From an uncultured Rhodospirillales bacterium (GTDB lineage: Bacteria; Pseudomonadota; Alphaproteobacteria; Rhodospirillales; 2-02-FULL-58-16): a stretch of DNA of 27,428 nucleotides. The stretch covers positions 1 through 27,428 of the forward strand of contig CAJXGZ010000001.1 of NCBI GenBank assembly GCA_913053795.1, given 5' to 3'. The position numbers and the translations under genes were made by a program. The first letter of the stretch is position 1, and each line of letters opens with the position of its first letter. Under the pieces are notes generated by a model, which was given only the letters and a program-made list of their open reading frames with translations, was not told the DNA's origin and did not search any database. Positions 6,568 through 27,428 of this stretch are shown one piece after another.

Positions 6568-6659
6568 CGCCCCTCACCGCCTCTCCTTGAAAAACGCTTG
6601 CAGCAATTCCGCCGAAGCCTTTTCTGAAACGCCGCCGTAGACTTCCGGCTTGTGGTTGC
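6568..6659. repeat. 92-bp direct repeat, copy 2 (intact tadA 3' end)
   Basis: Matches 5375-5466 with 2 mismatches. Confidence 0.95.
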
Positions 6660-7026: not shown

Positions 7027-7048
7027 GAACACACCATGCTTTTCTCTT

Positions 7049-7140
7049 ATACCAACCTGCACAGATAAACACCCATTGTGACGGCGATGCGAGGCTTCCG
7101 GACGTCGTCACAGTGGGTGTTTATCTGTGCAGGCTGGTAT
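7049..7140. repeat. 38-bp inverted repeat (3 mismatches, 16-nt loop), REP-like palindrome
   Basis: Arms 7049-7086 and 7103-7140; core CACAGATAAACAC/GTGTTTATCTGTG. Confidence 0.9.
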
Positions 7141-7168
7141 TATAGCTTACGTCAAGTAGAGTGCATTC

Positions 7169-9228: not shown

Positions 9229-9230
9229 CG

Positions 9231-12658: not shown

Positions 12659-12978
12659 TTTTCTCCTACACCTTTTCTAGCAGCCAACGCCGTCCGAGCC
12701 GACTCCGTTTTTGACGAGAAATAAGGGTTTTTTAGGGCTTTTTTGTATGTTTTCAAGCGTTTTTCCCCCGTTTTTTTCATTGGTTTTCCTTGTTTTTCAA
12801 GGGCTTGCACATGTTTTCCCCGTGTAATTCTGGTCATCCCTGGTCACTGAGGGACGTTTATGGCCTTTTCCCCACCCCCCAAATAAGAACCCAACATGAA
12901 TATTAGCAGATAATAATCGGATGTCAAGTATAAATAGGATGTTTATCTGTTTTTCTTGGTTGGGAGAAAGGAAGAATT

Positions 12979-13068
12979 AACCGCGAAGGACGCACAGGCG
13001 CACGGAGGATGGCGCGCAGGAAGGAAACGAGTGACGCGGATGAACCCGTGTCATTTAAAGAAAAACAA
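12979..13068. repeat. Degenerate repeat remnants, including a collapsed copy of the 15139-15237 element
   Basis: CGCGGATGAAC (13035-13045) equals 15159-15169 and is joined directly to CCGTGTCATTTAAAGAAAAACAA (13046-13068), similar to 15218-15237. A loose CGC(G/A)(A/C) iteration lies at 12979-13008. Confidence 0.6.
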
Positions 13069-13115
13069 TTAAATTCACCTTGATTTTTGTGCATACATTC
13101 GTACATATAATATAG

Positions 13116-13151
13116 ATGGAGTTCGAATGGGATAAAGCCAAGCGCACATGA
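13116..13151 (+). pseudogene. brnT: BrnT toxin remnant (about first 10 codons only)
   Basis: MEFEWDKAKR is the characteristic BrnT N-terminus; it stops at TGA overlapping the brnA ATG. TATAAT at 13106-13111 suggests a leaderless start. Confidence 0.75.
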
Positions 13152-13366
13152 AAGACGATGAGATTGATTATTCAGACATCCCGGAGACCGACGCGCGGTT
13201 CTGGGAAGGCGCCGAACTCGTCTTGCCCGCAAACAAGGAACGGGTCACCATCCGCCTGGACCGGGACGTGGTCGATTGGTTCAAGGACCACGGCAAGGGC
13301 TACCAAACCCGCATCAACGCCGTCTTGCGCGCCTTCGTCAACGGCCGGCGAGGATCGGAGCGGTGA
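13148..13366 (+). CDS. brnA: BrnA antitoxin family (DUF4415), probably N-terminally shortened
   Basis: EIDYSDIPE, VTIRLDRDVVDWFK..GKGYQTRINAVLR. Confidence 0.9.
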   Translation: MKDDEIDYSDIPETDARFWEGAELVLPANKERVTIRLDRDVVDWFKDHGKGYQTRINAVLRAFVNGRRGSER

Positions 13367-13463
13367 TGAGGCGCAATCACTCGGAATGGCCTTTTGGCGT
13401 CAATCTTTCCTTAATGACGTTTGTTCATGATTGTGGTTTTATGGGCGCGGTGGAGGATTAATC

Positions 13464-13985
13464 ATGACGTCAGTCGCGACAATCGGCTACGAAGGAGCCT
13501 CTTTGGAGGACTTCCTTGCAGTTCTTGCATTTGCTGGCGTTACCACCCTGATTGATGTCCGCGAAGCTCCTATTTCCCGCCGCAAGGGTTTTTCAAAAAA
13601 TATTCTCCGTGAAGCGCTGGAGAATATCGGGATCGATTACATCCACCTTGTCGGCCTTGGCAATCCCAAGAACGGGCGTGACGCCGCCCGCGAGGGGCGG
13701 CTTGATGACTATATAAAAATATTCTCTGCTCAAATGACGACCTCGAAGTTCAAAGCAGACCTGGAAAGGGCCGCCGAGATTGCTAGTGAAGGTGGAGCTT
13801 GCCTTATGTGCTACGAGCGCGACCCGAACGGCTGTCATCGAAAGATTGTGTCCGAAGCATTATACGATATTATTGATGCTAATATCAGCCATCTTGGGGT
13901 CCGGAAAGGAATTTCAAAGAATGGCGGTGAAGTCAGGTCACGAACGCGTTTTAATGCTGGTGAAAGCGCTGCCCCATGCGGGTGA
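13464..13985 (+). CDS. DUF488 family protein
   Basis: ATIGYEG, LIDVREAPISRRKGFSK, Y.HLVGLG, LMCYERDPNGCHR. GGAGG precedes ATG 13464. Confidence 0.9.
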   Translation: MTSVATIGYEGASLEDFLAVLAFAGVTTLIDVREAPISRRKGFSKNILREALENIGIDYIHLVGLGNPKNGRDAAREGRLDDYIKIFSAQMTTSKFKADLERAAEIASEGGACLMCYERDPNGCHRKIVSEALYDIIDANISHLGVRKGISKNGGEVRSRTRFNAGESAAPCG

Positions 13986-14682
13986 CAAACACGGCGAAAC
14001 CGTCTGCTGCGCAGGCGTAACTCCTGAACGTAAGTGGCGCCGTCAATTTCCAGTTCCTTTCCGCTATCTTGAAGACCAGAAATTCATCCGTTGGCAATGG
14101 ATCGAATATGATTGGCGGAAGCCAACTGATGATAAACGTCCAGAGAGTCAAAGGGTTCAAGAAGGAACGATCAGACCCGGCAAAGAAATGCCAAAAAAAG
14201 AACGGGCCGAATTCCTTCATCCGTTAATTGTCAGTTCCACTCTTGAAGCGGCCAACAACGGCGCGACGTTAGCGCTCATCCGACCAAGAGATACTGTGTT
14301 CACGTTCAAGAAAAAACGCCCTGAAGCCATAAATAAGGAGAGGCATGGGTATACAGCGGCGGCAAGCCAATTGTCTTTTCTAACGCAACGACAGAAGCCT
14401 CTTGAGCCTTGCCCCTACGAGTTCAAGTTCAAGTACACTACGGATGACGGCCGTCGCCACGAAAACATTTGTGGCGATTGGGAAACAGCGGCAATGTTTT
14501 ACAGGTTTGAAAAGATTTCTGGAGAAAAAGACGCCCTAAGAAAAATGGATGAAACTTTCAACATTGAATACCCAGAAAGAGGAATGGTTTTCGCCTTAGG
14601 AGCTCACTCACGATATCCAGATTCATGGTTGCTGGTTGGAGTGATCCGTCTTGATGAAGTGGACCAGTTGTCCCTCCTGTAA
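13921..14682 (+). CDS. Uncharacterised DUF488-partner protein, 253 aa
   Basis: LVKALPHAGDKHGETVCCAGV...RQFPVPFR...RWQWIE...DKRPES...CGDWE; start overlaps the DUF488 3' end by 65 nt; AAGGA upstream. Confidence 0.8.
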   Translation: MAVKSGHERVLMLVKALPHAGDKHGETVCCAGVTPERKWRRQFPVPFRYLEDQKFIRWQWIEYDWRKPTDDKRPESQRVQEGTIRPGKEMPKKERAEFLHPLIVSSTLEAANNGATLALIRPRDTVFTFKKKRPEAINKERHGYTAAASQLSFLTQRQKPLEPCPYEFKFKYTTDDGRRHENICGDWETAAMFYRFEKISGEKDALRKMDETFNIEYPERGMVFALGAHSRYPDSWLLVGVIRLDEVDQLSLL

Positions 14683-14734
14683 AGAGGAAAGGGGGGCAGT
14701 CACTTCGCCGCCAATTCACTAGGAGCGGCGCGCC

Positions 14735-15023
14735 ATGCAGATGCACAATCCGCCCCATCCTGGAGAGGCTGTTCGGGAGTTTTGTTTGGAGCCGTTGGGG
14801 CTTAGAGTCACCCGGGCGGCCAAGGGGCTGGGGGTGTCGCGCAAGGCGTTGTCGGAGCTGCTCAACGGCCATTCGGGGGTTTCGCCGGAAATGGCCATAC
14901 GCCTGTCCAAGGCCTTCGGCGGCGGGCCTTAAAAGCTGGCTGACCCAGCAGATGCATTACGACCTGTGGAAAGCCTCGATGCGCACCGATGACATTGAGG
15001 TGGTGGCGTTCGAGGCGGCTTGA
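14735..15023 (+). pseudogene. higA: HigA-family antitoxin, frameshifted
   Basis: MHNPPHPGE...[17 protein letters not shown] hits TAA at 14930-14932; the expected continuation SWLTQQMHYDLW...AA* lies in the +1 frame and ends at 15023. Confidence 0.85.
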
Positions 15024-15067
15024 GGCTCCAAATCATCCGTGATGGCCCCCGCACATAAAAGGTGAGT

Positions 15068-15132
15068 GGGGTCAGGTCTTGAATGTTGCATTTGATAAAA
15101 ATATATAAATTCAACATTCAAGACCTGACCCC
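15068..15132. repeat. Perfect 21-bp inverted repeat with 23-nt AT-rich loop (GGGGTCAGGTCTTG-type REP-like element)
   Basis: GGGGTCAGGTCTTGAATGTTG (15068-15088) and CAACATTCAAGACCTGACCCC (15112-15132). Confidence 0.92.
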
Positions 15133-15138
15133 AAACTC

Positions 15139-15222
15139 CACGGATTCACACGGATGGGCGCGGATGAACATGAAAGGCGGCTTTAATCTTTGTTCATCCG
15201 CGTTCATCCGTGTGAATCCGTG
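15139..15222. repeat. 32-bp inverted repeat (2 mismatches) built from CACGGAT/CGCGGAT iterations
   Basis: Arms 15139-15170 and 15191-15222, 20-nt loop. Confidence 0.92.
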
Positions 15223-15242
15223 TCATTAAAAAAACAACGATG

Positions 15243-15275
15243 AAAAGAGCCCGCTCCGAATCACCCGGAATGGGC
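15243..15275 (-). terminator. Possible intrinsic terminator overlapping the hemerythrin stop
   Basis: Imperfect 10-bp stem GCCCATTCCG/CGGAGCGGGC followed by UCUUUU on the minus strand. Confidence 0.35.
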
Positions 15276-15671
15276 GCTGTGAAAATCCCTATCGTAAGTG
15301 GCGAAGTGGACGCCGAACCAGCGGCTCATGGATTTCGCCAAGTCCTTTTCATAATCCTCCCATGAGTCCCCGGTGACGCTTTCCATGATGTCGCGGATTT
15401 CATCCAGCAATTTTCCATGGTCTTCCTTGTGGGCGGCGTAGCCCTTAAAGCCGATGTCGCGCATAATCTTTTCCTCAAGGGCGAAATGGGCCTCGATGAG
15501 GGCGTGAATCTCGCCGAGATATTGCTTGATTACGTCCTCGGCGCCATCGGGGGAGCAATCGGCGCCGGCCTTGCCGTGCATCTCGTTGATGAGGTTGATC
15601 AGGACTTCATGTTCATGGTCCACGGACGGGTTCCCGCATTTAAACGCGTCTTTCCAGGTCATTAACGCCAT
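15261..15671 (-). CDS. Bacteriohemerythrin (canonical ligand set)
   Basis: MTWKDAFKCGNPSVDHEH, HFALEE, HKEDH, WFGVHFATYD. Start placed at ATG 15671. Confidence 0.92.
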   Translation of the reverse strand: MALMTWKDAFKCGNPSVDHEHEVLINLINEMHGKAGADCSPDGAEDVIKQYLGEIHALIEAHFALEEKIMRDIGFKGYAAHKEDHGKLLDEIRDIMESVTGDSWEDYEKDLAKSMSRWFGVHFATYDRDFHSAHSG

Positions 15672-15912
15672 GTGTTTTTCCTTACGCCGGCTTGGATAAG
15701 AGCGGCCACGAACACTATATAGAAAGATAATGGGCAATTCGCATCAATCAAGATGGTGGCGGCTCAAAGGCCCGCCGCCGCTTAAAACGCCGAGAATGGG
15801 TTTTGGAAAGTTTTTATTAACACTATGAACTTAAAAGTAGGATGTTGAAGTTACGTGGAAAACTATCTTTTCACCGCTTTCATCAGCCAATTGGCTCGGA
15901 CAGGATGGCGCT

Positions 15913-16449
15913 ATGACAGAATTACAAGAAACTGAAATGCTGAAAAAAGAGCTCTTCGGTCTTTTCCAATACATCCAGAGGGTTCGCGAGGAAATCGTCG
16001 CCATCGAGCGCGACGCCGACGACGTCCATCAATTTGAAAGCATGTCCGACCAGTTGGACGCTATCGTCAAGGCCACCGAGGAAGCCACCGAAACCATCAT
16101 GATCGCCATGGAAGGCAACGAAGAGGCGGTGGTGGAATTAAAAAAGACCATCACCGATCCCGAACAAACAGCCCTGCTCGTCAAAATCGTTGAAAACGGG
16201 CAGAAGGTCTTTGAGGCCTGCGCCTTCCAGGACATCACCGGCCAGCGGGTCACCAAGATCGCCAAATCCGTCACCTATGTGGAAAAAAGGGTCAACGCCC
16301 TGATGGACATCTGGGGCAAGGAAGAGCTGGAGAAGGTCGAAATCAAGCCGGAAGAGAAAAAGACCGAGGACGAAAAGATGCTCCACGGTCCGCAACTGGA
16401 AAAAGAAAACTCCCTCGGCCAATCCGAAATCGACGCCCTGTTCGATTGA
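15913..16449 (+). CDS. cheZ: Protein phosphatase CheZ (alphaproteobacterial type)
   Basis: QLDAIVKATEEATETI, ACAFQDITGQRVTK (DxxxQ), LHGPQ, QSEIDALFD. Confidence 0.88.
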   Translation: MTELQETEMLKKELFGLFQYIQRVREEIVAIERDADDVHQFESMSDQLDAIVKATEEATETIMIAMEGNEEAVVELKKTITDPEQTALLVKIVENGQKVFEACAFQDITGQRVTKIAKSVTYVEKRVNALMDIWGKEELEKVEIKPEEKKTEDEKMLHGPQLEKENSLGQSEIDALFD

Positions 16450-16548
16450 TACAAAAGACCCACGCCTTATGACCTCTACACATCGGATGCGAAACCGTGT
16501 AGTATTCTCATCCGTTTTTATTCATAAACTTCAATATGGATTAAAAAA

Positions 16549-17088
16549 ATGGCGCGCCATGTCTCTTTTCTTTTCGCTCTTCTCCTCGGCGGCTTGGTCA
16601 TGACCGGCGCAGCCTTGGCGGGCGACCCGGAAAACACGCTCTTTCTGGACCTGAAAGACGGCCGCGTGGTCATCGAAATGAGGCCCGATCTGGCCCCTAA
16701 CCATGTCGCCCAGATCAAGAAGCTCGTCCGTGAAGGCTATTACGACGGGCTTAAGTTCCATCGGGTGATTGACGGCTTCATGGTCCAAGGCGGCGACAAC
16801 GGCAAAGGCGGCTCGGGCGTCAAGCTCAAGGCCGAGTTCTCCGACGAACGTCACCTGCGCGGGGTGACGTCCATGGCCAGGACGTCCGATCCCAACAGCG
16901 CCGACGCCCAATTCTTCATCATGCTGGGGGCGTCGCCTCACCTGGACGGCCAGTACACCATCTGGGGCAAGGTGGTCGAAGGCATGGAGTTCGTGGATAT
17001 GATCAAAAAGGGCTCTTCGGTGATGAACGGCATCGTCAGCAAGCCCGACAGCATCACCCGCATGCGGGTGGCCTCGGACGTTAAGTAA
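16549..17088 (+). CDS. Cyclophilin-type peptidyl-prolyl isomerase with signal peptide
   Basis: FHRVIDGFMVQGGD, SMART..PNSA..QFFI, HLDGQYTIWGKV. Confidence 0.95.
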   Translation: MARHVSFLFALLLGGLVMTGAALAGDPENTLFLDLKDGRVVIEMRPDLAPNHVAQIKKLVREGYYDGLKFHRVIDGFMVQGGDNGKGGSGVKLKAEFSDERHLRGVTSMARTSDPNSADAQFFIMLGASPHLDGQYTIWGKVVEGMEFVDMIKKGSSVMNGIVSKPDSITRMRVASDVK

Positions 17089-17145
17089 TGGACGTTAAGT
17101 AATGGGCGTTAAGTAATGGGCGTCAAGTAGTAGGCGTTAAGTAGA
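17076..17145. repeat. Tandem repeat, 5 x 14 bp (consensus GGRCGTTAAGTAAT)
   Basis: Units begin at 17076, 17090, 17104, 17118 and 17132; the array spans the stop codons of the cyclophilin gene and aspS. Confidence 0.92.
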
Positions 17146-18981
17146 CGCCTTTTCCCCTTCTTTCGATCCGTCATCCGTCTTTTTCGCCCCGGGTAATTTG
17201 GGGGGTAAATTGAGGCGGATGTGCAGCTCCTTCAGGCGCCGGGGCTCGACGGCCGACGGCGCGCCCATGAGCAGATCCTGAGCCTGCTGGTTCATGGGGA
17301 AGGCGATGACCTCGCGGATGTTGGGCTCGCCGGCCAGCAACATGACCATGCGGTCGATCCCCGGGGCCGCGCCGCCGTGGGGCGGGGCCCCGAACTTAAA
17401 GGCGGAAAGCAGGCCGCCGAACTGCTCCTCCACCTCTTTCTTGGCGTATCCGGCGATTTTAAAGGCCTTGTACATGATACTAGGGCTGTGGTTGCGGATG
17501 GCGCCGCTGGATAACTCGACGCCGTTGCAGACGATGTCGTACTGGTAGGCGAGGATGTCCAACGGGTCCATGGTCTCCAAGGCCTCCAGGCCCCCTTGCG
17601 GCATGGAGAAGGGATTGTGGCTGAACTCCACCTGGCCTGTATCCTCGTTCAGTTCGTACATGGGGTAATCGACGATCCAGCAGAAACGGAACGCGTTCTC
17701 CTCTAAAAGCCCCAACTCGGCGCACACCCTGGCCCGCGCCGCGGCGGAGAACCTTTCGGCGTCCTTCTTTTGGCCGCAAACAAAAAATACGGCGTCGCCG
17801 TCGCCGGCGCCAACGGCCTCCTTGATGGCGGCGATGCGGTCCTCTTCCAGGTTCTTGCCGATGGGCCCCTTGGCCTCGCCGCCGGCGAAAATGATGTAGC
17901 CGAGGCCGCCGGCCCCCTCGTCGCGCGCCCAATCGTTGAGCTTGTCGAAAAAGCTGCGCGGCCTTGAAGCCGCCCCCGGCGCCGGAAGGGCGCGCACGAC
18001 GGCCCCCTTTTCAACATTGCGGGCGAACAGGCCGAAGCCGGAGCCGCGAAAGGCTTCGGTGACGTCGCGCATCTGAAGCGGATTGCGCAGGTCCGGCTTG
18101 TCGTCGCCGTATTTCTCCATGGTCTCGGCGTAGGTTATGCGGGGGAACGGCGGCGCATTAACGCCGCGCGCGGCGCTGAATTCCTCGAATACGTCATGGA
18201 GGACCGGCTCTATTGCCGAGAAAACGTCCTCCTGTGTGGCGAAGGCCAACTCGAAGTCCAACTGGTAGAACTCCCCCGGAGAGCGGTCGGCGCGGGCGTC
18301 CTCGTCGCGAAAGCACGGCGCGATCTGGAAATACTTGTCGAACCCCGACACCATGAGAAGCTGCTTGAACTGCTGGGGCGCCTGGGGCAGGGCGTAGAAC
18401 TTTCCCGGATGGTTGCGGCTGGGCGTCAGATAGTCCCTGGCCCCTTCCGGCGACGAGGCGGTGAGGATCGGCGTCTGGATCTCCAGGAACCCTTGATCCG
18501 TCATGTGGCGGCGGAAGGACGAAATGACTTGCGAGCGCAACTGGATGTTGGCGTGCATGCCCTGGCGGCGCAAATCGAGAAAGCGGTGGCGAAGGCGCAT
18601 GTCGTCGGAAAACTCGGCGTCGCCGGCCACCTGCATGGGCAGCGTATCGGCCGGCGACTCGACGTGGATATGCTCCACCCGGAGCTCCACCTGGCCGGTG
18701 GGAAAGCTGGGGTTGATGGTGTCTTCCGAGCGCTTGACCACAGTGCCGGTGACGGTGAGCACGCTTTCGGGCCGCGCTTTCTCGGCGGTTTCGAACAGCG
18801 GACTGGAGACGTCGATGACGATCTGAGTCAATCCGTAATGGTCGCGCAAGTCGATGAAAAGCAGATTGCCGTGATCGCGCTTGCGGTGCAGCCAGCCGGA
18901 AAGGCGGGCCTTCCGGGAAGCGTCCTCCAGCCTCAATTGGCCGCAGGTGTGGGTGCGGTAGGGATGCATATCCTCGGTCAT
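17137..18981 (-). CDS. aspS: Aspartate--tRNA ligase
   Basis: [60 protein letters not shown]. Confidence 0.98.
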
Positions 18982-19202
18982 CGTAAGCCTTCACAAATGT
19001 TCGCGCGAATAAGGGGACGGGGGGGCGAATTTGTCAAGGTAAGCATCGAACTCTTCAGTCATGGCCGTGCTCGACACGGCCATCCACGTCTTTTTCGCCC
19101 CGCGAAAGAGAAGGCCAGCCTAGCGCACAGCTTGCCCGTCAAACACGAACCGCCTATGGTCTTTCTTATCCCTTTGATTGCGTCAACGGAGTGGAGGCAT
19201 TG

Positions 19203-19418
19203 ATGGAATGGCTGCTGATAATCGTCCTCTTTTCATCGACGGAGGATATCGACCACGCGCCGGTTCGATTCGAAACCCAACCTGAGTGCATTGCCGCGGC
19301 AGAGGCGTTTGTCAGGAAATTTCCTGCGTTTGAGTTCCGGGATCGCTCGGATAAACGAGCGGTGGAGACTCCCGTTATCCGCTCCTATGTAGAATGCATC
19401 CCGAAACCTTCCGGCTAA
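19203..19418 (+). CDS. Small hypothetical protein, 71 aa
   Basis: GGAGG ribosome-binding site; hydrophobic N-terminus and two Cys (ECIAAA...ECIP). Confidence 0.6.
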   Translation: MEWLLIIVLFSSTEDIDHAPVRFETQPECIAAAEAFVRKFPAFEFRDRSDKRAVETPVIRSYVECIPKPSG

Positions 19419-19455
19419 TTCATGGGGACATTCGACTTTATGATTAATCGGGACA

Positions 19456-19671
19456 CTATTTCCCGTCAGTAATCAAGAGTTCGTGGGGTTCCACGTTGAG
19501 GGCTTTTGCGATTTTGCTCAGCACGAGGGCGGAAGGGTTGCGCACCCCGCGCTCGATGCCGCTGATGTAGGTGCGGTGCATGCCGCACTCGAAGGCGAGC
19601 TGCTCCTGGGACAACTTTCTTTGGAGCCGGATGGCCTTCAGATTTCGGCCCACTTGCTTGCGGATATCCAT
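19456..19671 (-). CDS. XRE-family HTH regulator resembling restriction-modification controller (C) proteins
   Basis: VGRNLKAIRLQRKLSQEQLA...HRTYISGIERGVRNPS; the HRTY recognition helix is typical of C proteins. Confidence 0.9.
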   Translation of the reverse strand: MDIRKQVGRNLKAIRLQRKLSQEQLAFECGMHRTYISGIERGVRNPSALVLSKIAKALNVEPHELLITDGK

Positions 19672-19694
19672 GCCCGCAAGAACGCCACGGCGAA

Positions 19695-19720
19695 CATTAT
19701 TGGTCTACAGACTATGAGTC
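19695..19720 (-). promoter_or_regulatory. C-box-like operator
   Basis: Minus strand GACTCATAGTC-TGTA-GACCAATAATG: a perfect GACT-N3-AGTC box, a 4-nt spacer and a degenerate second box, ending 23 nt before the regulator ATG. Confidence 0.7.
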
Positions 19721-19767
19721 TCATTTTTGTTTACGAATAGCGCCCGCAACGCTAACCTCACACCCCC

Positions 19768-20232
19768 ATGAAGCCCAAACCGTCACCATCAAGAAACCAC
19801 ACGCTATTATTAAAAGCCGCCCTTTGCCTCGCCCTAACCGCATCGACGGCGACGGCGGCCAAAGCCCCGCCCATCCTAGGCCCCTACACCGCCCGCGTCA
19901 TCTCCATCCAAGACGGCGACACCCTAACCGTGGACGTCCCCCTATGGCCCGGCCTAACAATGCGCACAAAAGTCCGCCTAGCCGGAATAGACGCCCCTGA
20001 ACTAAAAGCCGCCTGTAAGAAAGAGCGCACTCTGGCAATCCAAGCCCGCACCCACCTAACCACCCTAGCCACCCCCCAAGTCCGACTCACCGACGTACGG
20101 CTAGGCAAATACGCGGGCCGCGTCGTGGCGCGGGTGCTAACCATGACCGGCGAGGATGTATCGGCAGTGATGCTGAGCAAGGGACTAGCGCGGGCCTATG
20201 ACGGAGGGAAGCGTGAAGGATGGTGTGATTAA
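19768..20232 (+). CDS. Thermonuclease (SNase-like) family protein with N-terminal signal-like region
   Basis: VISIQDGDTL, VRLAGIDAPE, KYAGRVVA, MLSKGLA. Confidence 0.9.
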   Translation: MKPKPSPSRNHTLLLKAALCLALTASTATAAKAPPILGPYTARVISIQDGDTLTVDVPLWPGLTMRTKVRLAGIDAPELKAACKKERTLAIQARTHLTTLATPQVRLTDVRLGKYAGRVVARVLTMTGEDVSAVMLSKGLARAYDGGKREGWCD

Positions 20233-20284
20233 CCTGCATTTTTTCAATTTAATGTATAATGTCTGAAATTTTTTGGAGAGAAAA

Positions 20285-20537
20285 ATGTTTGGAATGACTT
20301 TTCCAGTTAAGGTCTATGACCGCCTGTCTAAGAAAGGCTGGGAACCTGATGATATTGGTGGATATAAAGGGCAGGAAATATTTAGACAAATTTGTTATGC
20401 GCTAAAAGAATAATGGGTATGACGCTGATAGGGCGGCAATTTTATGGGATAAATGTTTGAGGGATGATGCTGAGGCATTGAAAACAATGCGTGACGATAC
20501 GGGATTAATCGGCATGACCCTTTTTGGGACAGATTAA
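20285..20537 (+). pseudogene. Frameshifted small hypothetical gene (AT-rich)
   Basis: GGAGAG upstream; MFGMTFPVKV...ICYALKE* (TAA 20411-20413) continues in the +1 frame as KNNGYDADRAAILW...LFGTD*. The shift falls in an A4 run. Confidence 0.5.
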
Positions 20538-20555
20538 ATGGATATTTGATAGGTG

Positions 20556-20622
20556 GGGGTCAGGGCAGGGGCAGGTCTTGCATTTTAGCATTTTCGCCTC
20601 TTTTGAATTAAGCATCCTGACC
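20556..20622. repeat. Degenerate GGGGTCAGG...CCTGACC element
   Basis: GGGGTCAGG (20556-20564), CAGGTCTTG (20572-20580) and CCTGACC (20616-20622) match parts of the 15068-15132 element. Confidence 0.55.
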
Positions 20623-20928
20623 TTACGCCGTTTCCGGCGTTTCGCCTGAAGCGGTCGCGCGGACGATGCGTTTTAGTTCATCGGCCATTTTTTGTGTTGC
20701 GATGCTCAGGTCGTGATTTAGCTGCATGGTCGACCAAAGGCCGGGGCCGGCGCCAAAGTAAACGCCGAGGCGCAGCGCCGTTTCCACCGTCACTGTGCGC
20801 TCGCAGTTGATGATGGCCGTGATGCGATTGGCGGGGACTCTGATTTCAAGCGCAAGCTTGTTGGCGCTCAATTTGCGGGCCGCCAATTCCCGCTTTAGCA
20901 ATTTTCCGGGATGTGTGCGTGTGCGCAT
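20623..20928 (-). CDS. higA: HigA/VapI-family antitoxin
   Basis: THPGKLLKREL...SANKLALEIRVPANRITAII...VTVETALRLGVYFG...LW..MQ..HDL. Confidence 0.9.
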   Translation of the reverse strand: MRTRTHPGKLLKRELAARKLSANKLALEIRVPANRITAIINCERTVTVETALRLGVYFGAGPGLWSTMQLNHDLSIATQKMADELKRIVRATASGETPETA

Positions 20929-20949
20929 GGTGTGGCTCCTTCATTACGC

Positions 20950-20979
20950 CTAATGATAGTCGACAATTTCCACGTCCTC
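20950..20979 (-). pseudogene. higB: HigB toxin C-terminal remnant
   Basis: EDVEIVDYH* directly upstream of the higA ribosome-binding site; DVEIVDYH is the usual end of HigB killer proteins. Sequence further upstream shows no HigB resemblance. Confidence 0.7.
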
Positions 20980-21065
20980 CAAAACAATTTCGGGGACATG
21001 ATGTAATTGCTTAATTTCACGGGTTCCAAGGGCCTTGCCCTTGGTTGGGGTTAAGGGGGCGGGTA

Positions 21066-21100
21066 GCTGACGGCTGATAGCTGACGGCTGATAGCCGACC
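21066..21100. repeat. Heptamer tandem repeat, 5 x GCTGA(CG/TA)
   Basis: GCTGACG GCTGATA GCTGACG GCTGATA GCCGACC. Confidence 0.85.
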
Positions 21101-21117
21101 GCTTCCACCATCGCTCC

Positions 21118-21161
21118 GGGTGGGCCGCCCGCCCTAACGGGTGGGCCAGCCCCCGCCCTAA
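21118..21161. repeat. Two small tandem palindromes, REP-like
   Basis: GGGTGGGCCGCCCGCCCTAA and GGGTGGGCCAGCCCCCGCCCTAA; read on the minus strand each is TTAG followed by a GGGCGGG/CCCACCC hairpin. Confidence 0.6.
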
Positions 21162-21216
21162 AGAGACGGCGGCGCTCCCCTAGCGGGTGTTTCCAATTTC
21201 GCCGCCGGGAAACATC

Positions 21217-21245
21217 CTTACAAACTCCCGGTTTATCTATATATT
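21217..21245 (+). promoter_or_regulatory. Candidate sigma70-type promoter for the hdr/kor operon
   Basis: CTTACA (21217-21222), 17-nt spacer, TATATT (21240-21245), 33 nt before the hdrB ATG. Confidence 0.4.
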
Positions 21246-21278
21246 CCGTCACTTCGTTGGAGTGGGGCGCGTTCCATA

Positions 21279-22157
21279 ATGAAGCTCAGTTACTACCCAG
21301 GCTGTACGCTCAAGGACAAGGCGAGGAACTTCGAGGACTCCACCATTTCCTCGATGAAGTTCCTTGGCGTCGAGCTTGAAGAGCTTGAGCGCTGGAACTG
21401 CTGCGGCACGGTTTTCTCCCTGGCCAGCGACGACTTGATGCGCCATTTGGCCCCGGTCCGCAATCTGATCCGGACCAAGGAGGCCGAGGCCGGGGAGCTC
21501 ACCACCACCTGCGCCATGTGCTACAACACGCTGAAAAGGGCCAACCTGCACGTCAAGGCCAACCCGGACATCTTGGAGCGGATGAACGACTTCATGTACG
21601 ATGAGGAAGTGGACTACGAAGGCGACGTCGAGGTCACCCACCTGATGGAGGTCTTGCGCGACAAGATCGGCTACGAGGCGCTGTCGGAGAAAGTGACCAA
21701 GCCCCTGGAGGGCCTGAAGGTGGCCGGCTATTACGGCTGTTTGCTGACGCGGCCCAGGGAAGTGGCCTTCGACGACGTGGAGAACCCCTCCTTTTTCGAG
21801 GGTTTGATTGAAGCCCTCGGCGCCAGTGCGGTGGACTTCCCCCACAGGTCCGAGTGCTGCGCCTCCTACCAGACCGTCGACAAGCCGGAGATCGTGGCTC
21901 AGCAAACACAGAAGATTCTCAAGTCCGCCAAGGCCCAGGGCGCCGACATCGTCGCCGTCAGCTGCCCCCTTTGCGCCTTCAACCTGGACAGCCGCCAAGA
22001 GGACGCGGCGCGCGCATACCCGGGCTTCGAACATATTCCCGTGGTTTATTTCACCCAGTTGATGGCCATGGCTTTCGAGAGGCCCTCCACCGAGATCGGC
22101 TTGGACGCCCATTACATAAACCCCTGTCCGGTGCTTGCCGAGAAAGGATTTTTGTAA
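21279..22157 (+). CDS. hdrB: Heterodisulfide reductase subunit B family (two CCG domains)
   Basis: YYPGC...WNCCG...CAMC and YYGC...ECCAS...CPLC. Confidence 0.92.
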   Translation: MKLSYYPGCTLKDKARNFEDSTISSMKFLGVELEELERWNCCGTVFSLASDDLMRHLAPVRNLIRTKEAEAGELTTTCAMCYNTLKRANLHVKANPDILERMNDFMYDEEVDYEGDVEVTHLMEVLRDKIGYEALSEKVTKPLEGLKVAGYYGCLLTRPREVAFDDVENPSFFEGLIEALGASAVDFPHRSECCASYQTVDKPEIVAQQTQKILKSAKAQGADIVAVSCPLCAFNLDSRQEDAARAYPGFEHIPVVYFTQLMAMAFERPSTEIGLDAHYINPCPVLAEKGFL

Positions 22158-22414
22158 TGTTCTTCGGAGCCCTCAAAAGTCAGAAAGGCGCACTCACCAT
22201 CAATAAAAATTGGTGCAAGGGCTGTGGTTTTTGCGTTGAATACTGCGTTGAGGACGTTTTGGAAATTTCATTGGAGTACAACGCAAAGGGCTACCATCCG
22301 CCTTTTGTCAAGGCCGCCGAGAATTGCAACAATTGCCGTATGTGCGAAATCATTTGTCCTGAATTCGCGCTTTTCGTTACGCCCGTTGAAGAGCCCGTTG
22401 AAGAGGAGAAGTAA
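22157..22414 (+). CDS. korD: 2x[4Fe-4S] ferredoxin, delta subunit of 2-oxoacid oxidoreductase
   Basis: CKGCGFCVEYC and CNNCRMCEIICP with the GYHPP linker; TAATG coupling to hdrB. Confidence 0.88.
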   Translation: MFFGALKSQKGALTINKNWCKGCGFCVEYCVEDVLEISLEYNAKGYHPPFVKAAENCNNCRMCEIICPEFALFVTPVEEPVEEEK

Positions 22415-22416
22415 CC

Positions 22417-23583
22417 GTGCGCAAGATCGCCGCTAATCCCAAGGCCGTCGACACCGGCACCCATTTTTTGGACGGCAACCACGCCGTTACCGAAGGCGGT
22501 CTCGTCTCCGGGGCCAACTTTTTCGCCGCCTACCCGATTACGCCCTCCACCGAGATCGCCGAGCTGTTCGCCGAGCGCATTCCCAAGATCGGCGGCATCT
22601 TTATCCAGATGGAGGACGAAATCGCCGCCTTGGCCGCCAACATCGGCGCCGTTTGGGGCGGCGCCAAGGTGATGACCACCACCTCTGGTCCCGGATTTTC
22701 GCTGATGATGGAAAACATCGGCCTGGCGGTGATGATGGAGGTCCCCATGGTCATCACCAACGTCCAGCGCGCCGGCCCTTCCACCGGGCTGCCCACCTAC
22801 GTCGCCCAGCAGGACATGATGCAGGTGCGCTGGGGCTCTCACGGCGATTACGAAATCATCGCGCTCTGCCCCGATTCGCCCCAGGAGTGCTTCGACCTCA
22901 CCATCGAGGCCTTCAACCTGTCGGAGACCTACCGCGTTCCTGTCTTCATCATGATCGACGAATGCATCGGACATATGCATGAAAAGGTGGTGATTCCCGA
23001 GGCCAAGGACATCAACGTCCTGGACCGCCGCTGGTACGACGGCCCCAAGGGGCAATACAAACCCTACAAGGTCGGCAAGGACGGCATCGCGCCCATGGCC
23101 AAGGCCGGCGACGGCCACCACATGCACGCCACCGGCCTGACCCATGACGAACGCGGCTACCCGGCCCTCACCGTCGCCCAGCAGAAAATCGTCATTCCCC
23201 ATTTGATCGACAAGATCAAGAATAACGCCGACAAGATCATCAAACTCGAGGAAACGGACGTCAAAGGCGCCGAGGTCGTCGTCATGTCCTACGGCATTAC
23301 GTCCAGGGTGGCGGTCAGGGCCGTTCAATTGGCGAAGGAGGCCGGAATCAAGGTCGGCTCCATCCGCCTGATCACCGCATGGCCCTTCCCCGAAAAGCGA
23401 ATCAAGGAAGTGGCCAAGGACGTGAAGGCCATCATCTTCCCCGAAATCAACATGGGACAAATGGTGTTGGAGGCCGAAAGGTGCGCCGGCGGACAGTGCA
23501 AGGTCGTCTCCATCCCCCACCCGGGCGGCGACGTCCATGACCCCGACGACATCGTCGCCGCCATCAAGGAGGCAATCAAATGA
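22417..23583 (+). CDS. korA: 2-oxoacid:ferredoxin oxidoreductase alpha subunit
   Basis: GNHA, YPITPSTEI, QMEDEIAA, TSGPGFSLM, QRAGPSTGLPT. Confidence 0.93.
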   Translation: MRKIAANPKAVDTGTHFLDGNHAVTEGGLVSGANFFAAYPITPSTEIAELFAERIPKIGGIFIQMEDEIAALAANIGAVWGGAKVMTTTSGPGFSLMMENIGLAVMMEVPMVITNVQRAGPSTGLPTYVAQQDMMQVRWGSHGDYEIIALCPDSPQECFDLTIEAFNLSETYRVPVFIMIDECIGHMHEKVVIPEAKDINVLDRRWYDGPKGQYKPYKVGKDGIAPMAKAGDGHHMHATGLTHDERGYPALTVAQQKIVIPHLIDKIKNNADKIIKLEETDVKGAEVVVMSYGITSRVAVRAVQLAKEAGIKVGSIRLITAWPFPEKRIKEVAKDVKAIIFPEINMGQMVLEAERCAGGQCKVVSIPHPGGDVHDPDDIVAAIKEAIK

Positions 23584-24500
23584 CCGAGACAACCGCCGAA
23601 GACCAAGAATACGCCGACGGGGAGGATTTCATCGAAGGAAACCCCATGGCCAACTTCCTGCGCATGGAGCGGATGCCCCATATCTGGTGTCCCGGCTGCG
23701 GCATAGGCACGGTCGTCACCTCTTTCGCCGAAGCCGTCAAGAAAAGCGGCATCGATATGGACAAGCTGGCCGTGGTCTCGGGCATCGGCTGCACCGGCCG
23801 GGTCGCCGGCTACGTCAACCTGGATTCCTTTCACACCACCCATGGCCGCCCCATCGCCTTCGCCACCGGACTGAAGCTGGCCAACCCCGAACTCAAGGTG
23901 GTGGTCTTCAGCGGCGATGGCGACATCATGGGCATCGGCGGCAATCACTTCATCCACGCCGCCCGGCGCAACATGGACCTGATCGTCATCTGCGTGAACA
24001 ACTTCACCTACGGCATGACCGGCGGCCAAGTGACGCCGACGACGCCGAAAACCGCCAACGCCTCCACCGCGCCCCACGGCAATTTCGAGAACGCTTTCAG
24101 CCTGCCGTTCCTGGCCGACGCCTGCGGCGCCAACTACGTCGCCCGCTGGACCTCCCTGCACGCCCGGCGCATCACCGGCTCAATCCAGGAGGCCTTCAAC
24201 AAGAAAGGCCTGTCCTTCATTGAGGTGATCACGCCCTGCACGACGCTATACGCCCGCAGGAACCGCCTCGGCGACGGCCTGGACGCTTTGCAGTACTATC
24301 ACGACAAGTCCGAGATCAAGCACGGCGCCGACACCCGGGAAGTCGACATCGGCTTTCAGGACAAGATCATCATGGGAAAGTTCGTCGATAGGGACAACCC
24401 CTCGTTCCTGGAGGCCATGAACACCCAGTTCAGCACCGTCATGGGCGACGATTACCAGCTTTACGGCAAGACCGAATGTGAAGGGGATTGCGGCGAATGA
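23580..24500 (+). CDS. korB: 2-oxoacid:ferredoxin oxidoreductase beta subunit (TPP-binding)
   Basis: WCPGCG, SGIGC, HGR, GDGD...GGNH, NNFTYGMTGGQ. Confidence 0.93.
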   Translation: MTETTAEDQEYADGEDFIEGNPMANFLRMERMPHIWCPGCGIGTVVTSFAEAVKKSGIDMDKLAVVSGIGCTGRVAGYVNLDSFHTTHGRPIAFATGLKLANPELKVVVFSGDGDIMGIGGNHFIHAARRNMDLIVICVNNFTYGMTGGQVTPTTPKTANASTAPHGNFENAFSLPFLADACGANYVARWTSLHARRITGSIQEAFNKKGLSFIEVITPCTTLYARRNRLGDGLDALQYYHDKSEIKHGADTREVDIGFQDKIIMGKFVDRDNPSFLEAMNTQFSTVMGDDYQLYGKTECEGDCGE

Positions 24501-25096
24501 GTGAAATCAGATTCTCAGGATTTGGCGGACAGGGAATCGTGCGTTGCGCCCTGATCGCCGGCAAGGCGGCGAACATTTTCGACGACAAGTTCGCCACCAT
24601 GACCCAGAGCTTCGGCCCCGAGGCCCGCGGCGGCGCCTGCGCCTCGCAGCTGGTGGTTTCCGATGAGCGCATCGCCTATCCTTACGTCACCAAGGCGGAC
24701 ATTCTCATCACCTTGTCTCAGGAGGCCTACGACAAGTACGAGCCGCAAATGAGCGATGACGGCGTCCTCATCGCCGACCAGGACCTGGTCAAGACGCGGC
24801 CCGCGCGCGACAACATCACCTTGCACGTGGTGCCGGCGACCCGCTTCGCCGAGGAGCTGGGCAACCGCATTTTCACCAACTTGGTGACTCTCGGGTTCTT
24901 TACCGGAATCACCGGGGTGGTTTCCCCCGAAGCCATGAAGAACGCCCTGCCCGGCCTGGTCCCGGACCGGTTTCTCACGCACAACGTCAAGGCCTTTGAA
25001 AGAGGATACGATTACGCCAAGGAAGTCTTGGGCGAGAGCAAGGGCAAGGCGAAGGCGGGCAAGACCAAGGTAAACAAGAAAAAAGGTAAGAAGTAG
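24497..25096 (+). CDS. korC: 2-oxoacid:ferredoxin oxidoreductase gamma subunit
   Basis: EIRFSGFGGQG, SFGPEARGGAC; ATGA overlap with korB. Confidence 0.93.
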   Translation: MSEIRFSGFGGQGIVRCALIAGKAANIFDDKFATMTQSFGPEARGGACASQLVVSDERIAYPYVTKADILITLSQEAYDKYEPQMSDDGVLIADQDLVKTRPARDNITLHVVPATRFAEELGNRIFTNLVTLGFFTGITGVVSPEAMKNALPGLVPDRFLTHNVKAFERGYDYAKEVLGESKGKAKAGKTKVNKKKGKK

Positions 25097-25139
25097 GGCC
25101 GCTGAAGGCGCGGCCGCTGATAGCTTCCGAGGAAATGGG

Positions 25140-27095
25140 ATGACAAAGCGCACCGGAGTTTTCGTCTGCCACTGCGGCACCAACATCGCCGCGACCGTCG
25201 ACGTCAAAAAGGTGAAAGAGGAACTGGCCAAGGAGGAAGGCGTGGTCTTCTCCGAGGACTACCTCTATATGTGCTCCGAGCCGGGCCAGAACACGGTTAT
25301 CGAGGCCATCAAGGACAACAAGCTGGACAGCGTCGTCGTCGCCTGCTGCTCGCCCACCCTCCACGAAAAGACCTTCCGCGACGTCACCGAGCTCGCCGGC
25401 GTCAATCAGTTCCAATGCGAAATCGCCAACATCCGCGAACAGTGCAGCTGGGTCCACAAAGACAAGGACGTGGGCACCGAAAAAGCCATCAAGATCACCC
25501 GCAGCGCCTTCATGAAGGTCATGCGCAACGAATCCCTGACCCCCCAGCGCATTCCCGTCACCCGCCGGGTGATGGTCATCGGCGCCGGCATCGCCGGCAT
25601 CCAGGCGTCCCTGGACATGGCGGCGGCCGGCTATGAAGTGGTCCTGGTGGAGAAAGACCCCACCATCGGCGGCAACATGCTCAAGTTGTCCGAGACCTTC
25701 CCGACGCTGGACTGCTCCCAGTGCATCCTCTCGCCCAAGATGGTGGAGCTGTCAAAAAACCCCAAGATCAAGCTGCACATCAAAAGCGAAGTTACGGAAG
25801 TCACCGGCTTCGTCGGCAACTTCAAGGCCAAGATCCACAAGAAGCCCACTTACGTGGACGCCGAGCTGTGCAAACTGTGCGATCATTGCACGGACGTCTG
25901 CCCGATCATCGTTCCCAACGAATACGATTTAGGGCTCACCGGGCGCCGCGCCATTTTCATTCCCTTCGCCCAGTCCATTCCCGCCACCTTCTACCTGGAC
26001 GAAGACACCTGCATGGGCATCAATCCCATCTCCTGCGGCAAGTGCGCCGAGCCCGACGTTTGCGAGCCATTGGCCATCGACTTCGACATGCAGCCCGAGA
26101 CCATCGAGGAAGAGATCGGGGCCATCATCGTCGCCACCGGGTTCGAGCTTTACGGTAAGGAAAAACTGTCCGAATACGGCTATGGCAAGTACCCGGACGT
26201 GCTCGACGGCCTGCAATTCGAACGGCTGTGTTCGGCCTCCGGCGCCACCGGCGGCCACATCCTGCGCCCTTCGGACCACAAGGTTCCCAAGAAAATCGTC
26301 TTTATTCAATGCGTCGGCTCGCGCGACCCCGAGCTTCACTGCCCCTATTGCTCCAAGGTCTGCTGCATGTACACGGCCAAGCACGCCATGCTGTACAAAA
26401 AGCACGTTCCCGACGGCAAGGCGCACATTTTCTATATCGACATCCGCTCCGGCGGCAAAGGCTACGAGGAATTCATCCAGCGCGCCATCGACGACGATCA
26501 CGTCATGTACCTGCGCGGCAAGGTGTCCCAGCTTTACGAAGAAGACGGCAAGATCATCGTCCAGGGTTCCGACACCCTGTCCGGACAAATGGTCGAGATC
26601 AACGCCGACATGGTGGTGCTGGCGGTGGCCATGGTTCCGACCAGGGGAACCAGGGAAATGGCCAAGGTCCTCAAGATTTCCCTGGACAAGGACGGCTTCC
26701 TGGCCGAGGCCCACCCCAAGCTGAAGCCGGTGGAAAGCGTCACCGCGGGCGTCTTCCTGGCCGGCGCCGGCCAATCGCCGAAGGACATCCCCGAAACCGT
26801 GGCCCAGGCCAGCGCGGCGGCGGCCAAGGCGATCATCCTGCTGTCCCAGGAAACCCTGGCGGCGTCGCCCTCGGTGGCCCGGGTGGTCACGGATCTTTGC
26901 ACCGGCTGCGCCATGTGCGTACAGGCCTGCCCCTTTGACGCCATTAAGCTCGACGCTGAAAAGGCAAGCGTCAACGAAGCCTTGTGCCAAGGCTGCGGCA
27001 CCTGTACGGCCACCTGTCTGCGCGCCGCCATCGACGTCAAGAACAACACGCCGCTGCAAATTTTTGACATGATCAACGTCGCGCTCGGAGGGTGA
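25140..27095 (+). CDS. hdrA: Heterodisulfide reductase subunit A (FAD and Fe-S)
   Basis: CHCGTNI, ACCSP, NIREQC, VIGAGIAG, FPTLDCSQC, central ferredoxin Cys clusters, CVGSRD...YCSKVCC, C-terminal CTGCAMCVQACP and CQGCGTCTATC. Confidence 0.96.
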   Translation: MTKRTGVFVCHCGTNIAATVDVKKVKEELAKEEGVVFSEDYLYMCSEPGQNTVIEAIKDNKLDSVVVACCSPTLHEKTFRDVTELAGVNQFQCEIANIREQCSWVHKDKDVGTEKAIKITRSAFMKVMRNESLTPQRIPVTRRVMVIGAGIAGIQASLDMAAAGYEVVLVEKDPTIGGNMLKLSETFPTLDCSQCILSPKMVELSKNPKIKLHIKSEVTEVTGFVGNFKAKIHKKPTYVDAELCKLCDHCTDVCPIIVPNEYDLGLTGRRAIFIPFAQSIPATFYLDEDTCMGINPISCGKCAEPDVCEPLAIDFDMQPETIEEEIGAIIVATGFELYGKEKLSEYGYGKYPDVLDGLQFERLCSASGATGGHILRPSDHKVPKKIVFIQCVGSRDPELHCPYCSKVCCMYTAKHAMLYKKHVPDGKAHIFYIDIRSGGKGYEEFIQRAIDDDHVMYLRGKVSQLYEEDGKIIVQGSDTLSGQMVEINADMVVLAVAMVPTRGTREMAKVLKISLDKDGFLAEAHPKLKPVESVTAGVFLAGAGQSPKDIPETVAQASAAAAKAIILLSQETLAASPSVARVVTDLCTGCAMCVQACPFDAIKLDAEKASVNEALCQGCGTCTATCLRAAIDVKNNTPLQIFDMINVALGG

Positions 27096-27098
27096 CTG

Positions 27099-27251
27099 GT
27101 GTCTAGTACCCACTTTGAACCCAGAATCGTCGCCTTTCTGTGCAAGTGGTGCTCCTCGGCGGGCAGCGACCTCGCCGGCGTTTCGCGCATGCAGTACCCG
27201 GCCAACATCGTGCCGATCACCGTCATGTGCTCGTCGCGGGATGGCACGTAA
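27099..27251 (+). pseudogene. mvhD: MvhD (hydrogenase/Hdr-associated [2Fe-2S] subunit), truncated after ~47 codons
   Basis: [42 protein letters not shown], then DGT*. Family similarity stops at about 27240. Confidence 0.85.
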
Positions 27252-27273
27252 ACGCGGTCGCCGACCCGGTAAT

Positions 27274-27428
27274 TCATAGCCCGCTCCACTCGGGGATAAT
27301 GTCGAACCTGGGGTGAATGCCGGCCTTGTTGACGGGCCCGTCGGGCAGGCCCTCGTCTTCCCGGCAGAGCTCGCAGAGGATGATTTCCTCAACGCCGTCT
27401 CGGAATTCCAACGCCGCGACCGGCGCTA
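27274..27428 (-). CDS. 3' end of an unknown gene entering from beyond the window
   Basis: APVAALEFRDGVEEIILCELCREDEGLPDGPVNKAGIHPRFDIIPEWSGL*; coding-like codon use; ATGA overlap with a next minus-strand start at 27277. Confidence 0.5.
   Translation of the reverse strand, partial: APVAALEFRDGVEEIILCELCREDEGLPDGPVNKAGIHPRFDIIPEWSGL

Follow-up and report, generated by a model that had tools for sequence, protein, structure and literature searches.

An hdrB-korDABC-hdrA-mvhD gene array in a hydrothermal-vent alphaproteobacterium as part of a probable reverse tricarboxylic acid cycle cassette

Seven co-oriented genes, hdrB-korD-korA-korB-korC-hdrA-mvhD, are found at the 3' end of the longest contig (C1) of a metagenome-assembled genome (MAG; G000) of a hydrothermal-vent alphaproteobacterium; the entire contig, 27,428 nucleotides, is the stretch of DNA analyzed here (the window). 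With high confidence, this array can be recognized as the 5' half of the "reverse tricarboxylic acid (rTCA) cycle cluster 1" cassette known from sulfur-oxidizing Gammaproteobacteria. The published cassette, described from the Escarpia and Riftia symbionts and from Thioflavicoccus mobilis, has the order frdB(tfrB)-frdA(tfrA)-hdrC-hdrB-korD-korA-korB-korC-hdrA-flxD-flxC-flxB-flxA-aclB-aclA-idh (Rubin-Blum et al., 2019; PMC6315080). In the model of these authors, NADH enters via Flx and HdrA bifurcates its electrons, those of low potential passing to Kor for the synthesis of 2-oxoglutarate and those of high potential to HdrBC and a soluble fumarate reductase. The Endoriftia cluster was later reported to be co-expressed throughout, intergenic regions included, with rTCA genes (Mitchell et al., 2024; PMC11636981), and a 2026 survey restated the bifurcation idea as still hypothetical. 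Nothing specific was found in the literature on an alphaproteobacterial copy or on the biochemistry of a Kor-Hdr cluster. The core bifurcation idea, the gene order and the function are already published; what is new is the alphaproteobacterial host and a split architecture of the cassette. The published function in the rTCA cycle overtakes that proposed in a first-pass annotation of the window, which had Kor take the place of a hydrogenase or Flx as the input to HdrA-MvhD.

Gene Order and Completion of the Operon

Likeness to the symbiont cassettes was established from gene order and from the nesting of a gammaproteobacterial MAG (L022) in the same clade. From hdrB to idh, the order is identical to that in Candidatus Endoriftia persephone, the Escarpia laminata symbiont and T. 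mobilis, and Calvin-Benson-Bassham (CBB) genes occur in both. The two differ in their hosts, alphaproteobacterial here and Chromatiaceae there, and in tfrB-tfrA-(rbr)-hdrC, which is adjacent there but unlinked in the relatives G002 and G006 and not found in this MAG. A synteny search, one of the checks suggested with the first-pass annotation, recovered the seven-gene order in six relatives and in 10 of the best 80 loci of a scan of public genomes; this order is not due to chance.

The genes that follow mvhD were located on two other contigs of the same genome. C377 (2221 bp) encodes FlxC (amino acids 30-343), FlxB and FlxA (amino acids 1-72), and C39 encodes FlxA (amino acids 89-274), AclB, AclA, a monomeric NADP isocitrate dehydrogenase (1244 bits) and aconitase (677 bits). 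We infer that the full unit reads hdrB-korDABC-hdrA-flxD(mvhD)-flxC-flxB-flxA-aclB-aclA-idh-acn, with C1, C377 and C39 joined over two short gaps in the assembly. Five genes with coupled starts, flxC to aclA (Table 1), come after mvhD in G002, the closest complete relative (HdrA 84% identical), where a UPF0262 gene adjoins the cluster; an NAD-binding domain, a 2Fe-2S site and a fold of the FAD type are present in FlxA. The 13-gene order of G002 is repeated in G018, G028 and G001 and, to the contig end, in G006. The segment hdrB-korDABC-hdrA-flxDCBA-aclBA is kept in four relatives with contigs long enough, with two more matching to their contig ends, and flxDCBA stands directly after hdrA in every close relative whose contig extends that far. 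Downstream aclB-aclA was found in G002, G018, G028, G001, L019, L022 and L027, as well as on C39. An IS3-family transposase gene (290 bits; L104:9657-10586, on C39) lies just 3' of the aconitase gene, the last of the rTCA cluster.

The Chimeric Contig End

That the window holds no Flx genes is a consequence of a chimeric contig end and of contig breaks. The homology of mvhD ends after codon 45, at position 27233. In GCA_011052025.1, an independent assembly, contig DRJY01000101.1 (L098) encodes an identical HdrA followed by an intact FlpD of 141 amino acids and the start of flxC; it is identical to the window through 27233 and unrelated beyond. Logan contigs from the vent-metagenome runs X1 and X2 extend over 26144-27233, beyond which their sequence is that of DRJY01000101.1, in the mvhD frame. 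The depth of run X1 at the contig tail rises from 4.9 to 13.5, and the loose end of another contig enters at 27212, so that approximately 22 nt are common to two unrelated sequences. No Pfam family was found in the tail (27234-27428), including its minus-strand open reading frame at 27277-27426, and no second copy of the tail was found in the MAG. The tail, together with the apparent mvhD stop at 27251, is an assembly chimera; a true insertion or rearrangement cutting mvhD was considered and dropped, given the intact mvhD in both the independent assembly and the Logan contigs.

The first-pass annotation had described seven co-oriented, coupled genes, and their identities, overlaps and order have stood; the array is, however, not a complete operon, and mvhD is genuine only as far as codon 45 (27099-27233). 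It had also raised the possibility of a chimeric contig, singling out 19000-21300. The contig proved chimeric in its last 195 bases; continuity across 19000-21300 is supported by overlapping Logan contig pieces of even depth in three runs, with no single piece covering the whole and no break among the loose ends listed.

On C39 (L104:369-1289), a CheW-like N-terminus (residues 36-120, Pfam CheW 6.8e-20) runs in frame into FlxA at approximately residue 89, and this CheW/FlxA fusion is a second chimeric join within the same operon. Two misjoins in one operon suggest that the assembler was confused by strain variation or repeats. The methodological lesson is that two chimeric joins in a single MAG operon gave a misleading, Flx-less picture.

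Gene Identities, Cofactor Motifs and Junctions

Gene identities were assigned by profile searches of Pfam and NCBIfam, complemented for hdrB, korA and hdrA by alignment with solved structures. Every gene of the array was confirmed by both databases, and the cofactor motifs are intact (Table 1).

The operon begins with hdrB in the window's own family. The HdrB protein encoded here retains all ten cluster Cys, in the patterns C-X31-CC-X35-CxxC and C-X38-CC-X34-CxxC, and matches the solved HdrB 7BKB_B over its full length. Among NCBIfam models, the SdhE/MfrE type and CoB_CoM_SS_B score approximately 172 bits each, both below cut-off; these equal scores for the CoB-CoM HdrB and for the anchor of type-E fumarate reductases, SdhE/MfrE, would fit a link to fumarate reductase.

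All four Kor subunits, alpha, beta (binding thiamine pyrophosphate, TPP), gamma and delta (2x4Fe-4S), are encoded. KorA passes NF006412, a generic 2-oxoacid model, with 534 bits against a cut-off of 411, and its nearest solved structures are 1YD7, 8YS5 (2-oxoglutarate synthase) and 6N2N. The best NCBIfam model of KorB is the beta subunit of 2-oxoglutarate ferredoxin oxidoreductase (251 bits, below the 364-bit cut-off), and those of KorD are OGOR_delta (63 bits) and OorD (45 bits), again below their cut-offs. KorC ends in a Lys-rich tail of approximately 20 residues (window positions 25036-25096) that is not conserved in relatives; tblastn alignments of KorC to these stop at approximately residue 181-183 of 202, before the tail.

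HdrA aligns with the solved Methanothermococcus HdrA 5ODC_A over residues 4-645 (664 bits), in agreement with the first-pass reading that its FAD and Fe-S motifs are kept, and it is predicted to be a full-length flavo-iron-sulfur subunit of the bifurcation type. The best-scoring named NCBIfam model is HdrA2 (NF040770), at 805 bits against a cut-off of 1100 and therefore below it.

The gene overlaps noted earlier were also borne out. The hdrB/korD junction is TAATG, with the ATG of korD at 22157 and not 22154; the korA/korB junction is ATGA, as is that of korB/korC if korC starts at 24497. Gaps of 2, 43 and 3 nt separate korD/korA, korC/hdrA and hdrA/mvhD, respectively, and the site scan of the window found no terminator-like site on the plus strand between array genes. 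The promoter-like site 5' of hdrB comes from a consensus scan in which 6 sites were observed against 1.6 expected.

Table 1. Positions of the features discussed, in window coordinates unless another contig or locus is named.
Feature	Position	Strand	Description
XRE-type regulator	19456-19671		accessory stretch
SNase-family gene	19768-20232		accessory stretch
Antitoxin-like gene	20623-20928	opposite to hdrB	accessory stretch, upstream of hdrB
Promoter-like site	21217-21245	+	CTTACA-17-TATATT, 34 nt 5' of hdrB; consensus scan only
hdrB	21279-22157	+	two CCG domains (Pfam CCG 1.4e-18); ten cluster Cys
korD	22157-22414	+	85-aa delta subunit, 2x[4Fe-4S]; Fer4 families (Pfam)
korA	22417-23583	+	alpha subunit; POR_N 2.8e-69, PFOR_II
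korB	23580-24500	+	TPP-binding beta subunit; TPP_enzyme_C 2e-32
korC	24497-25096	+	gamma subunit; POR 1.3e-31; likely start ATG 24497, alternative TTG 24488
hdrA	25140-27095	+	651 aa; FAD fold; N-terminal, inserted and C-terminal Fe-S domains; 31 Cys
mvhD/flxD, first 45 codons	27099-27233	+	FlpD positions 1-38 (Pfam); true gene 141 aa, then flxC
Chimeric contig tail	27234-27428	.	195 bases, foreign to the locus; independent assembly and Logan contigs
G002 flxC	after mvhD		343-aa Fe-S protein
G002 flxB	after flxC		357 aa; Fer4_22; HydB/AsrA-like Fe-S protein
G002 flxA	after flxB		274 aa; NAD_binding_1 and DHODB_Fe-S_bind; HydG/AsrB-like
G002 aclB, aclA	after flxA		ATP-citrate lyase, beta then alpha
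G002 tfr operon	L099 (G002:C1:99000-110000), 4397-8145	-	tfrB 340 aa, tfrA 556 aa, rubrerythrin 184 aa, hdrC 144 aa

Comparison with Known Systems

The subunit types FlxA-D, HdrA and HdrB are those of the FlxABCD-HdrABC system of Desulfovibrio vulgaris, as far as that system is described in the paper citing it (Ramos et al., 2015, cited in PMC6315080); going by that account, the array differs in having four Kor genes between hdrB and hdrA and in being linked to acl and tfr, where the D. vulgaris genes are linked to alcohol dehydrogenase. With MvhAGD-HdrABC of methanogens (5ODC, 8RVU, 7BKB), HdrA and the full length of HdrB can be aligned and MvhD is common to both, but neither MvhA/MvhG hydrogenase nor formate dehydrogenase genes are present here, and flxCBA after mvhD would make Flx the donor module. 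To our knowledge, CoM-S-S-CoB, in contrast to the methanogen system, is not to be expected in a bacterium. HdrA matches positions 1-640 of NF040770, the model of HdrA of Methanosarcina HdrA2B2C2, and MvhD positions 646-775, and since these are consecutive parts of one model, HdrA and MvhD together correspond to a split HdrA2; in Methanosarcina the two are fused, and the partners also differ.

With OorDABC/KorABCD, the array shares the delta-alpha-beta-gamma order and the domain set, and the best models of its beta and delta subunits are those of 2-oxoglutarate enzymes, but the kor genes lie within an Hdr/Flx operon and the alpha subunit alone passes a curated cut-off. The layout is not of the sHdr type, as had been recognized from the outset: the HdrA of sHdr is short and without ferredoxin domains, whereas that of the window has 651 amino acids and is full length against 5ODC; the gene order differs from hdrC1B1A-hyp-hdrC2B2, and sHdr also has lipoate-binding proteins.

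Distribution and Phylogeny

With one genome per species scanned, the loci fell into three tiers of HdrA identity. At 65-73%, the order is hdrB-korDABC-hdrA-flxD, with flxCBA next where the contig extends; alpha- and gammaproteobacterial MAGs of this tier have aclBA after flxA, and in several MAGs labeled Aminicenantes, Clostridiales/Eubacteriales and Acidobacteriota hdrC precedes hdrB, with tfrBA after flxA in three of them. At 55-59%, the kor genes adjoin hdrA-mvhD-hdrB in varied orders in hosts that include, by MAG label, Thermoplasmata, Heimdallarchaeota, Cloacimonadota, Thermotogae, Planctomycetota and Anaerolineae, and no flxCBA was found within the fetched flanks (L028, L031, L036, L037, L040, L043); for these distant clusters, Kor might be a partner without Flx. 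At 50-54%, the loci are plain hdrB-hdrA-flxDCBA.

In a tree of HdrA rooted on the plain Flx-Hdr tier, the Kor-linked HdrAs form one clade, separate from those of plain Flx-Hdr (support 98). Within it, the proteobacterial copies are a clade of 11 (support 100) in which the gammaproteobacterial L022 is nested and to which MAGs named Rhodospirillaceae, Rhodomicrobiaceae and "Alphaproteobacteria" belong; its sisters are copies from Aminicenantes, Clostridia and Acidobacteriota. These named MAGs, together with the gene beside the G002 cluster for UPF0262, an alphaproteobacterial family, are the basis for placing the host in the Alphaproteobacteria, a protein atlas having reached no further than Pseudomonadota. 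A tree of KorA+KorB, like that of HdrA a quick search, has the same topology, and this congruence implies that Kor and Hdr have travelled together. The phylogenies called for with the first-pass annotation thus place the proteobacterial clade inside the clusters of anaerobes, and the simplest reading is an old transfer of the module from anaerobes to Proteobacteria. The transfer supposed in that annotation is in keeping with this nesting, but it was not recent, because the guanine-plus-cytosine content of the locus is host-like and HdrA identities to G002, G001, G028 and G018 (84, 71, 72 and 71%) parallel those of AspRS (84, 77, 76 and 70%). Within the host order, an orthologue occurs in 10 of 300 other genomes and in 5 of 110 genera (6 of 111 with the window's own genus); what the window adds is that the cassette is present in a few alphaproteobacterial vent lineages, 3 of the 34 families sampled in the order.

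Two more distant HdrA paralogues in relatives (approximately 40% identity), at G008:C551:856-2133 and G023:C16:636505-637800, each contain a single in-frame TGA and may be selenocysteine-containing HdrAs.

The Fumarate Reductase Genes and the Partner of HdrB

The unit tfrBA-(rubrerythrin)-hdrC lies immediately 5' of hdrB in G018, G028, G001, a Rhodospirillaceae MAG (L018) and the gammaproteobacterial L022, and tfrBA lies 3' of flxA in three versions from anaerobes (L023, L025, L026). In G002, tfrB-tfrA-rbr-hdrC is a separate operon on the same contig, approximately 45 kb from hdrB-kor-hdrA-flx-acl; in G006 the genes of the unit are present, unlinked, on other contigs, and in G011 tfrA is on another contig. 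Neither tfrB-tfrA nor hdrC is adjacent to hdrB in the window, where an antitoxin-like gene on the opposite strand and an accessory stretch are found upstream. In the family to which the window belongs, the local difference is that tfrB-tfrA-rubrerythrin-hdrC has been relocated to a locus of its own, and the window thereby adds that the fumarate-reductase/hdrC part of the cassette can be unlinked. A role for KorD as a substitute for the missing HdrC was considered and is unnecessary, at least for the relatives, which encode hdrC elsewhere.

With tfrBA linked to the module in most versions, a soluble fumarate reductase is the more likely partner of HdrB than the thiol/disulfide couples (DsrC, lipoyl protein, glutathione) named as candidates in the first-pass annotation. 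Two DsrC genes are present in the MAG (164 and 155 bits; C305 and C53), each near a weak match to HdrC queries (27-29% identical), and these contigs may hold a dsr-type locus in two copies or as strain duplicates. DsrC was rejected as a conserved substrate of HdrB, since none occurs in G002, which is the closest complete relative and carries the cluster.

Proposed Mechanism and Its Alternatives

Given the interleaved order kept across phyla and the congruence of the HdrA and KorA+KorB trees, Kor and Hdr very probably form a functional unit. By analogy with the published model, a coupling of NADH oxidation to both Kor and fumarate is, in our estimate, moderately probable; the donor, the direction of electron flow, the physical complex and the substrate would then be as follows. 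NADH, likely the donor, would be oxidized at FlxA, with FlxB, FlxC and FlxD relaying the electrons to the HdrA flavin, the presumed site of bifurcation. The low-potential electron would be delivered, via KorD directly or via free ferredoxin, to the four-subunit 2-oxoglutarate:ferredoxin oxidoreductase, most likely the acceptor, where it would drive the reductive carboxylation of succinyl-CoA. The high-potential electron would move from HdrC to HdrB and then to TfrAB, the soluble fumarate reductase, or to a thiol/disulfide that serves TfrAB, such that the exergonic NADH-to-fumarate step would pay for the ferredoxin-level step of the rTCA cycle. The context of acl, idh, acn and tfr favors 2-oxoglutarate as the substrate of Kor.

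Several observations weigh against this proposal. As noted above, KorB and KorD fall below the NCBIfam cut-offs for 2-oxoglutarate enzymes, and the one cut-off passed by KorA is that of a generic 2-oxoacid model. Searches of the MAG, which is 84% complete, with the proteins of relatives did not find orthologues of tfrAB or hdrC; the only matches, besides the weak HdrC-like sequences noted above, were SdhA/NadB-type paralogues of 35-36% identity. This non-detection is no proof of absence, as 16% of the genome is missing. The module also occurs without acl in MAGs labeled as anaerobes, which indicates that its function does not depend on a complete rTCA cycle, and the presence of a form II RuBisCO and phosphoribulokinase in the MAG means that the rTCA cycle need not be the main pathway. 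Finally, an alignment of 16 close and 10 distant Kor-linked HdrAs with 40 plain Flx-Hdr HdrAs revealed no clade-specific docking insertion in the Kor-linked proteins. Such an insertion was accordingly rejected; the Kor-linked HdrAs are set apart only by the loss of 4 residues near position 606 and by a single diagnostic residue, N635 (G in the plain HdrAs).

This last result would accord with co-regulation without a physical complex, where Flx-Hdr would make free reduced ferredoxin for Kor, pyruvate synthase and other enzymes, and the interleaving of kor and hdr would be structurally meaningless. Other 2-oxoacid:ferredoxin oxidoreductase genes of the MAG, on C45 (an open frame of 893 amino acids), C237 and C80, would need ferredoxin too. 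However, different phyla retain korDABC at precisely the same place, between hdrB and hdrA and with stop and start codons overlapping, and together with the congruence of the Kor and HdrA trees this exceeds what co-regulation usually preserves. We consider mere co-regulation unlikely.

The direction of flow may also be questioned. 2-Oxoacid:ferredoxin oxidoreductases and flavin-based bifurcating enzymes are reversible, and in an oxidative, confurcating direction electrons from 2-oxoglutarate oxidation by Kor and from succinate or a thiol would join at HdrA to reduce NAD+, an oxidative branch of the TCA cycle thereby overcoming the unfavorable step from succinate to NAD+. The hdrCB-korDABC-hdrA-flxDCBA-tfrBA modules without ATP-citrate lyase in MAGs labeled Aminicenantes, Clostridiales/Eubacteriales and Acidobacteriota would be consistent with this direction. 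In every proteobacterial copy with a contig long enough, however, aclBA follows the module, as do idh and acn in the genome of the window, and the Endoriftia cluster is co-expressed with rTCA genes (PMC11636981). Confurcation therefore seems quite improbable for the locus studied here.

The model of the first-pass annotation, in which Kor replaces the hydrogenase or Flx input and 2-oxoacid oxidation is coupled to a thiol/disulfide at HdrB, would find some encouragement in the absence of a visible Flx gene within the window, in the two DsrC genes and in some distant Kor-linked clusters (55-59%) without flxCBA in the fetched flanks, but it can be set aside as highly improbable for this organism, the Flx gap in the window stemming from the chimeric contig end, flxC, flxB and flxA being present in the genome itself (C377 and C39) and directly 3' of mvhD in all close relatives, and G002 keeping the cluster without DsrC.

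Within the NADH-driven bifurcation scheme, a more specific arrangement can be proposed only tentatively, namely that Kor might be hard-wired into the Hdr/Flx particle, electrons passing from KorD to the TPP site with no free ferredoxin, and that the fumarate-reductase/HdrC half might be a separate, exchangeable module in this family. If so, these microaerobic vent bacteria, in which Calvin cycle genes are also found, would operate a 2-oxoglutarate synthase driven by NADH, which would bear on the long-standing question of the source of ferredoxin-level reductant in rTCA organisms living near oxygen. The cassette is a candidate answer to the question of how the rTCA cycle gains very low-potential electrons from NADH.

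Two Pathways of Carbon Fixation

Genes for a form II RuBisCO (cbbM), phosphoribulokinase and cbbR were found on C269 of the window's genome (L102:153-3481) and on C14 of G002 (L101:3745-7056), with cbbM scores of 791 and 860 bits, respectively, against a cut-off of 489 bits. This alphaproteobacterial vent lineage has the key genes of two carbon-fixation pathways, the rTCA cycle (acl/kor/idh/acn) and the CBB cycle. Two carbon-fixation pathways have been reported for Endoriftia and Thioflavicoccus, and no paper on dual pathways in Alphaproteobacteria was found in the literature searched. RuBisCO and phosphoribulokinase beside the cassette imply that dual-pathway autotrophy of the Endoriftia type would not be confined to Gammaproteobacteria.

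Genomic Context of the Window

The MAG is fragmented (396 contigs, 2.47 Mb, 4.9% contamination). Positions 1-19000 of the window carry housekeeping and other genes, including xseA, purD, mutL, pgi, aspS, two hemerythrins and a CheZ-like gene. Between aspS and hdrB lies an accessory stretch with XRE/antitoxin-type genes and an SNase-family nuclease. Within this stretch, 19575-20834 has zero depth in run X4, the strain of which is 95-99% identical, and loose ends occur at 18764 and 21104; the segment is a strain-variable islet missing from the related strain in that run.

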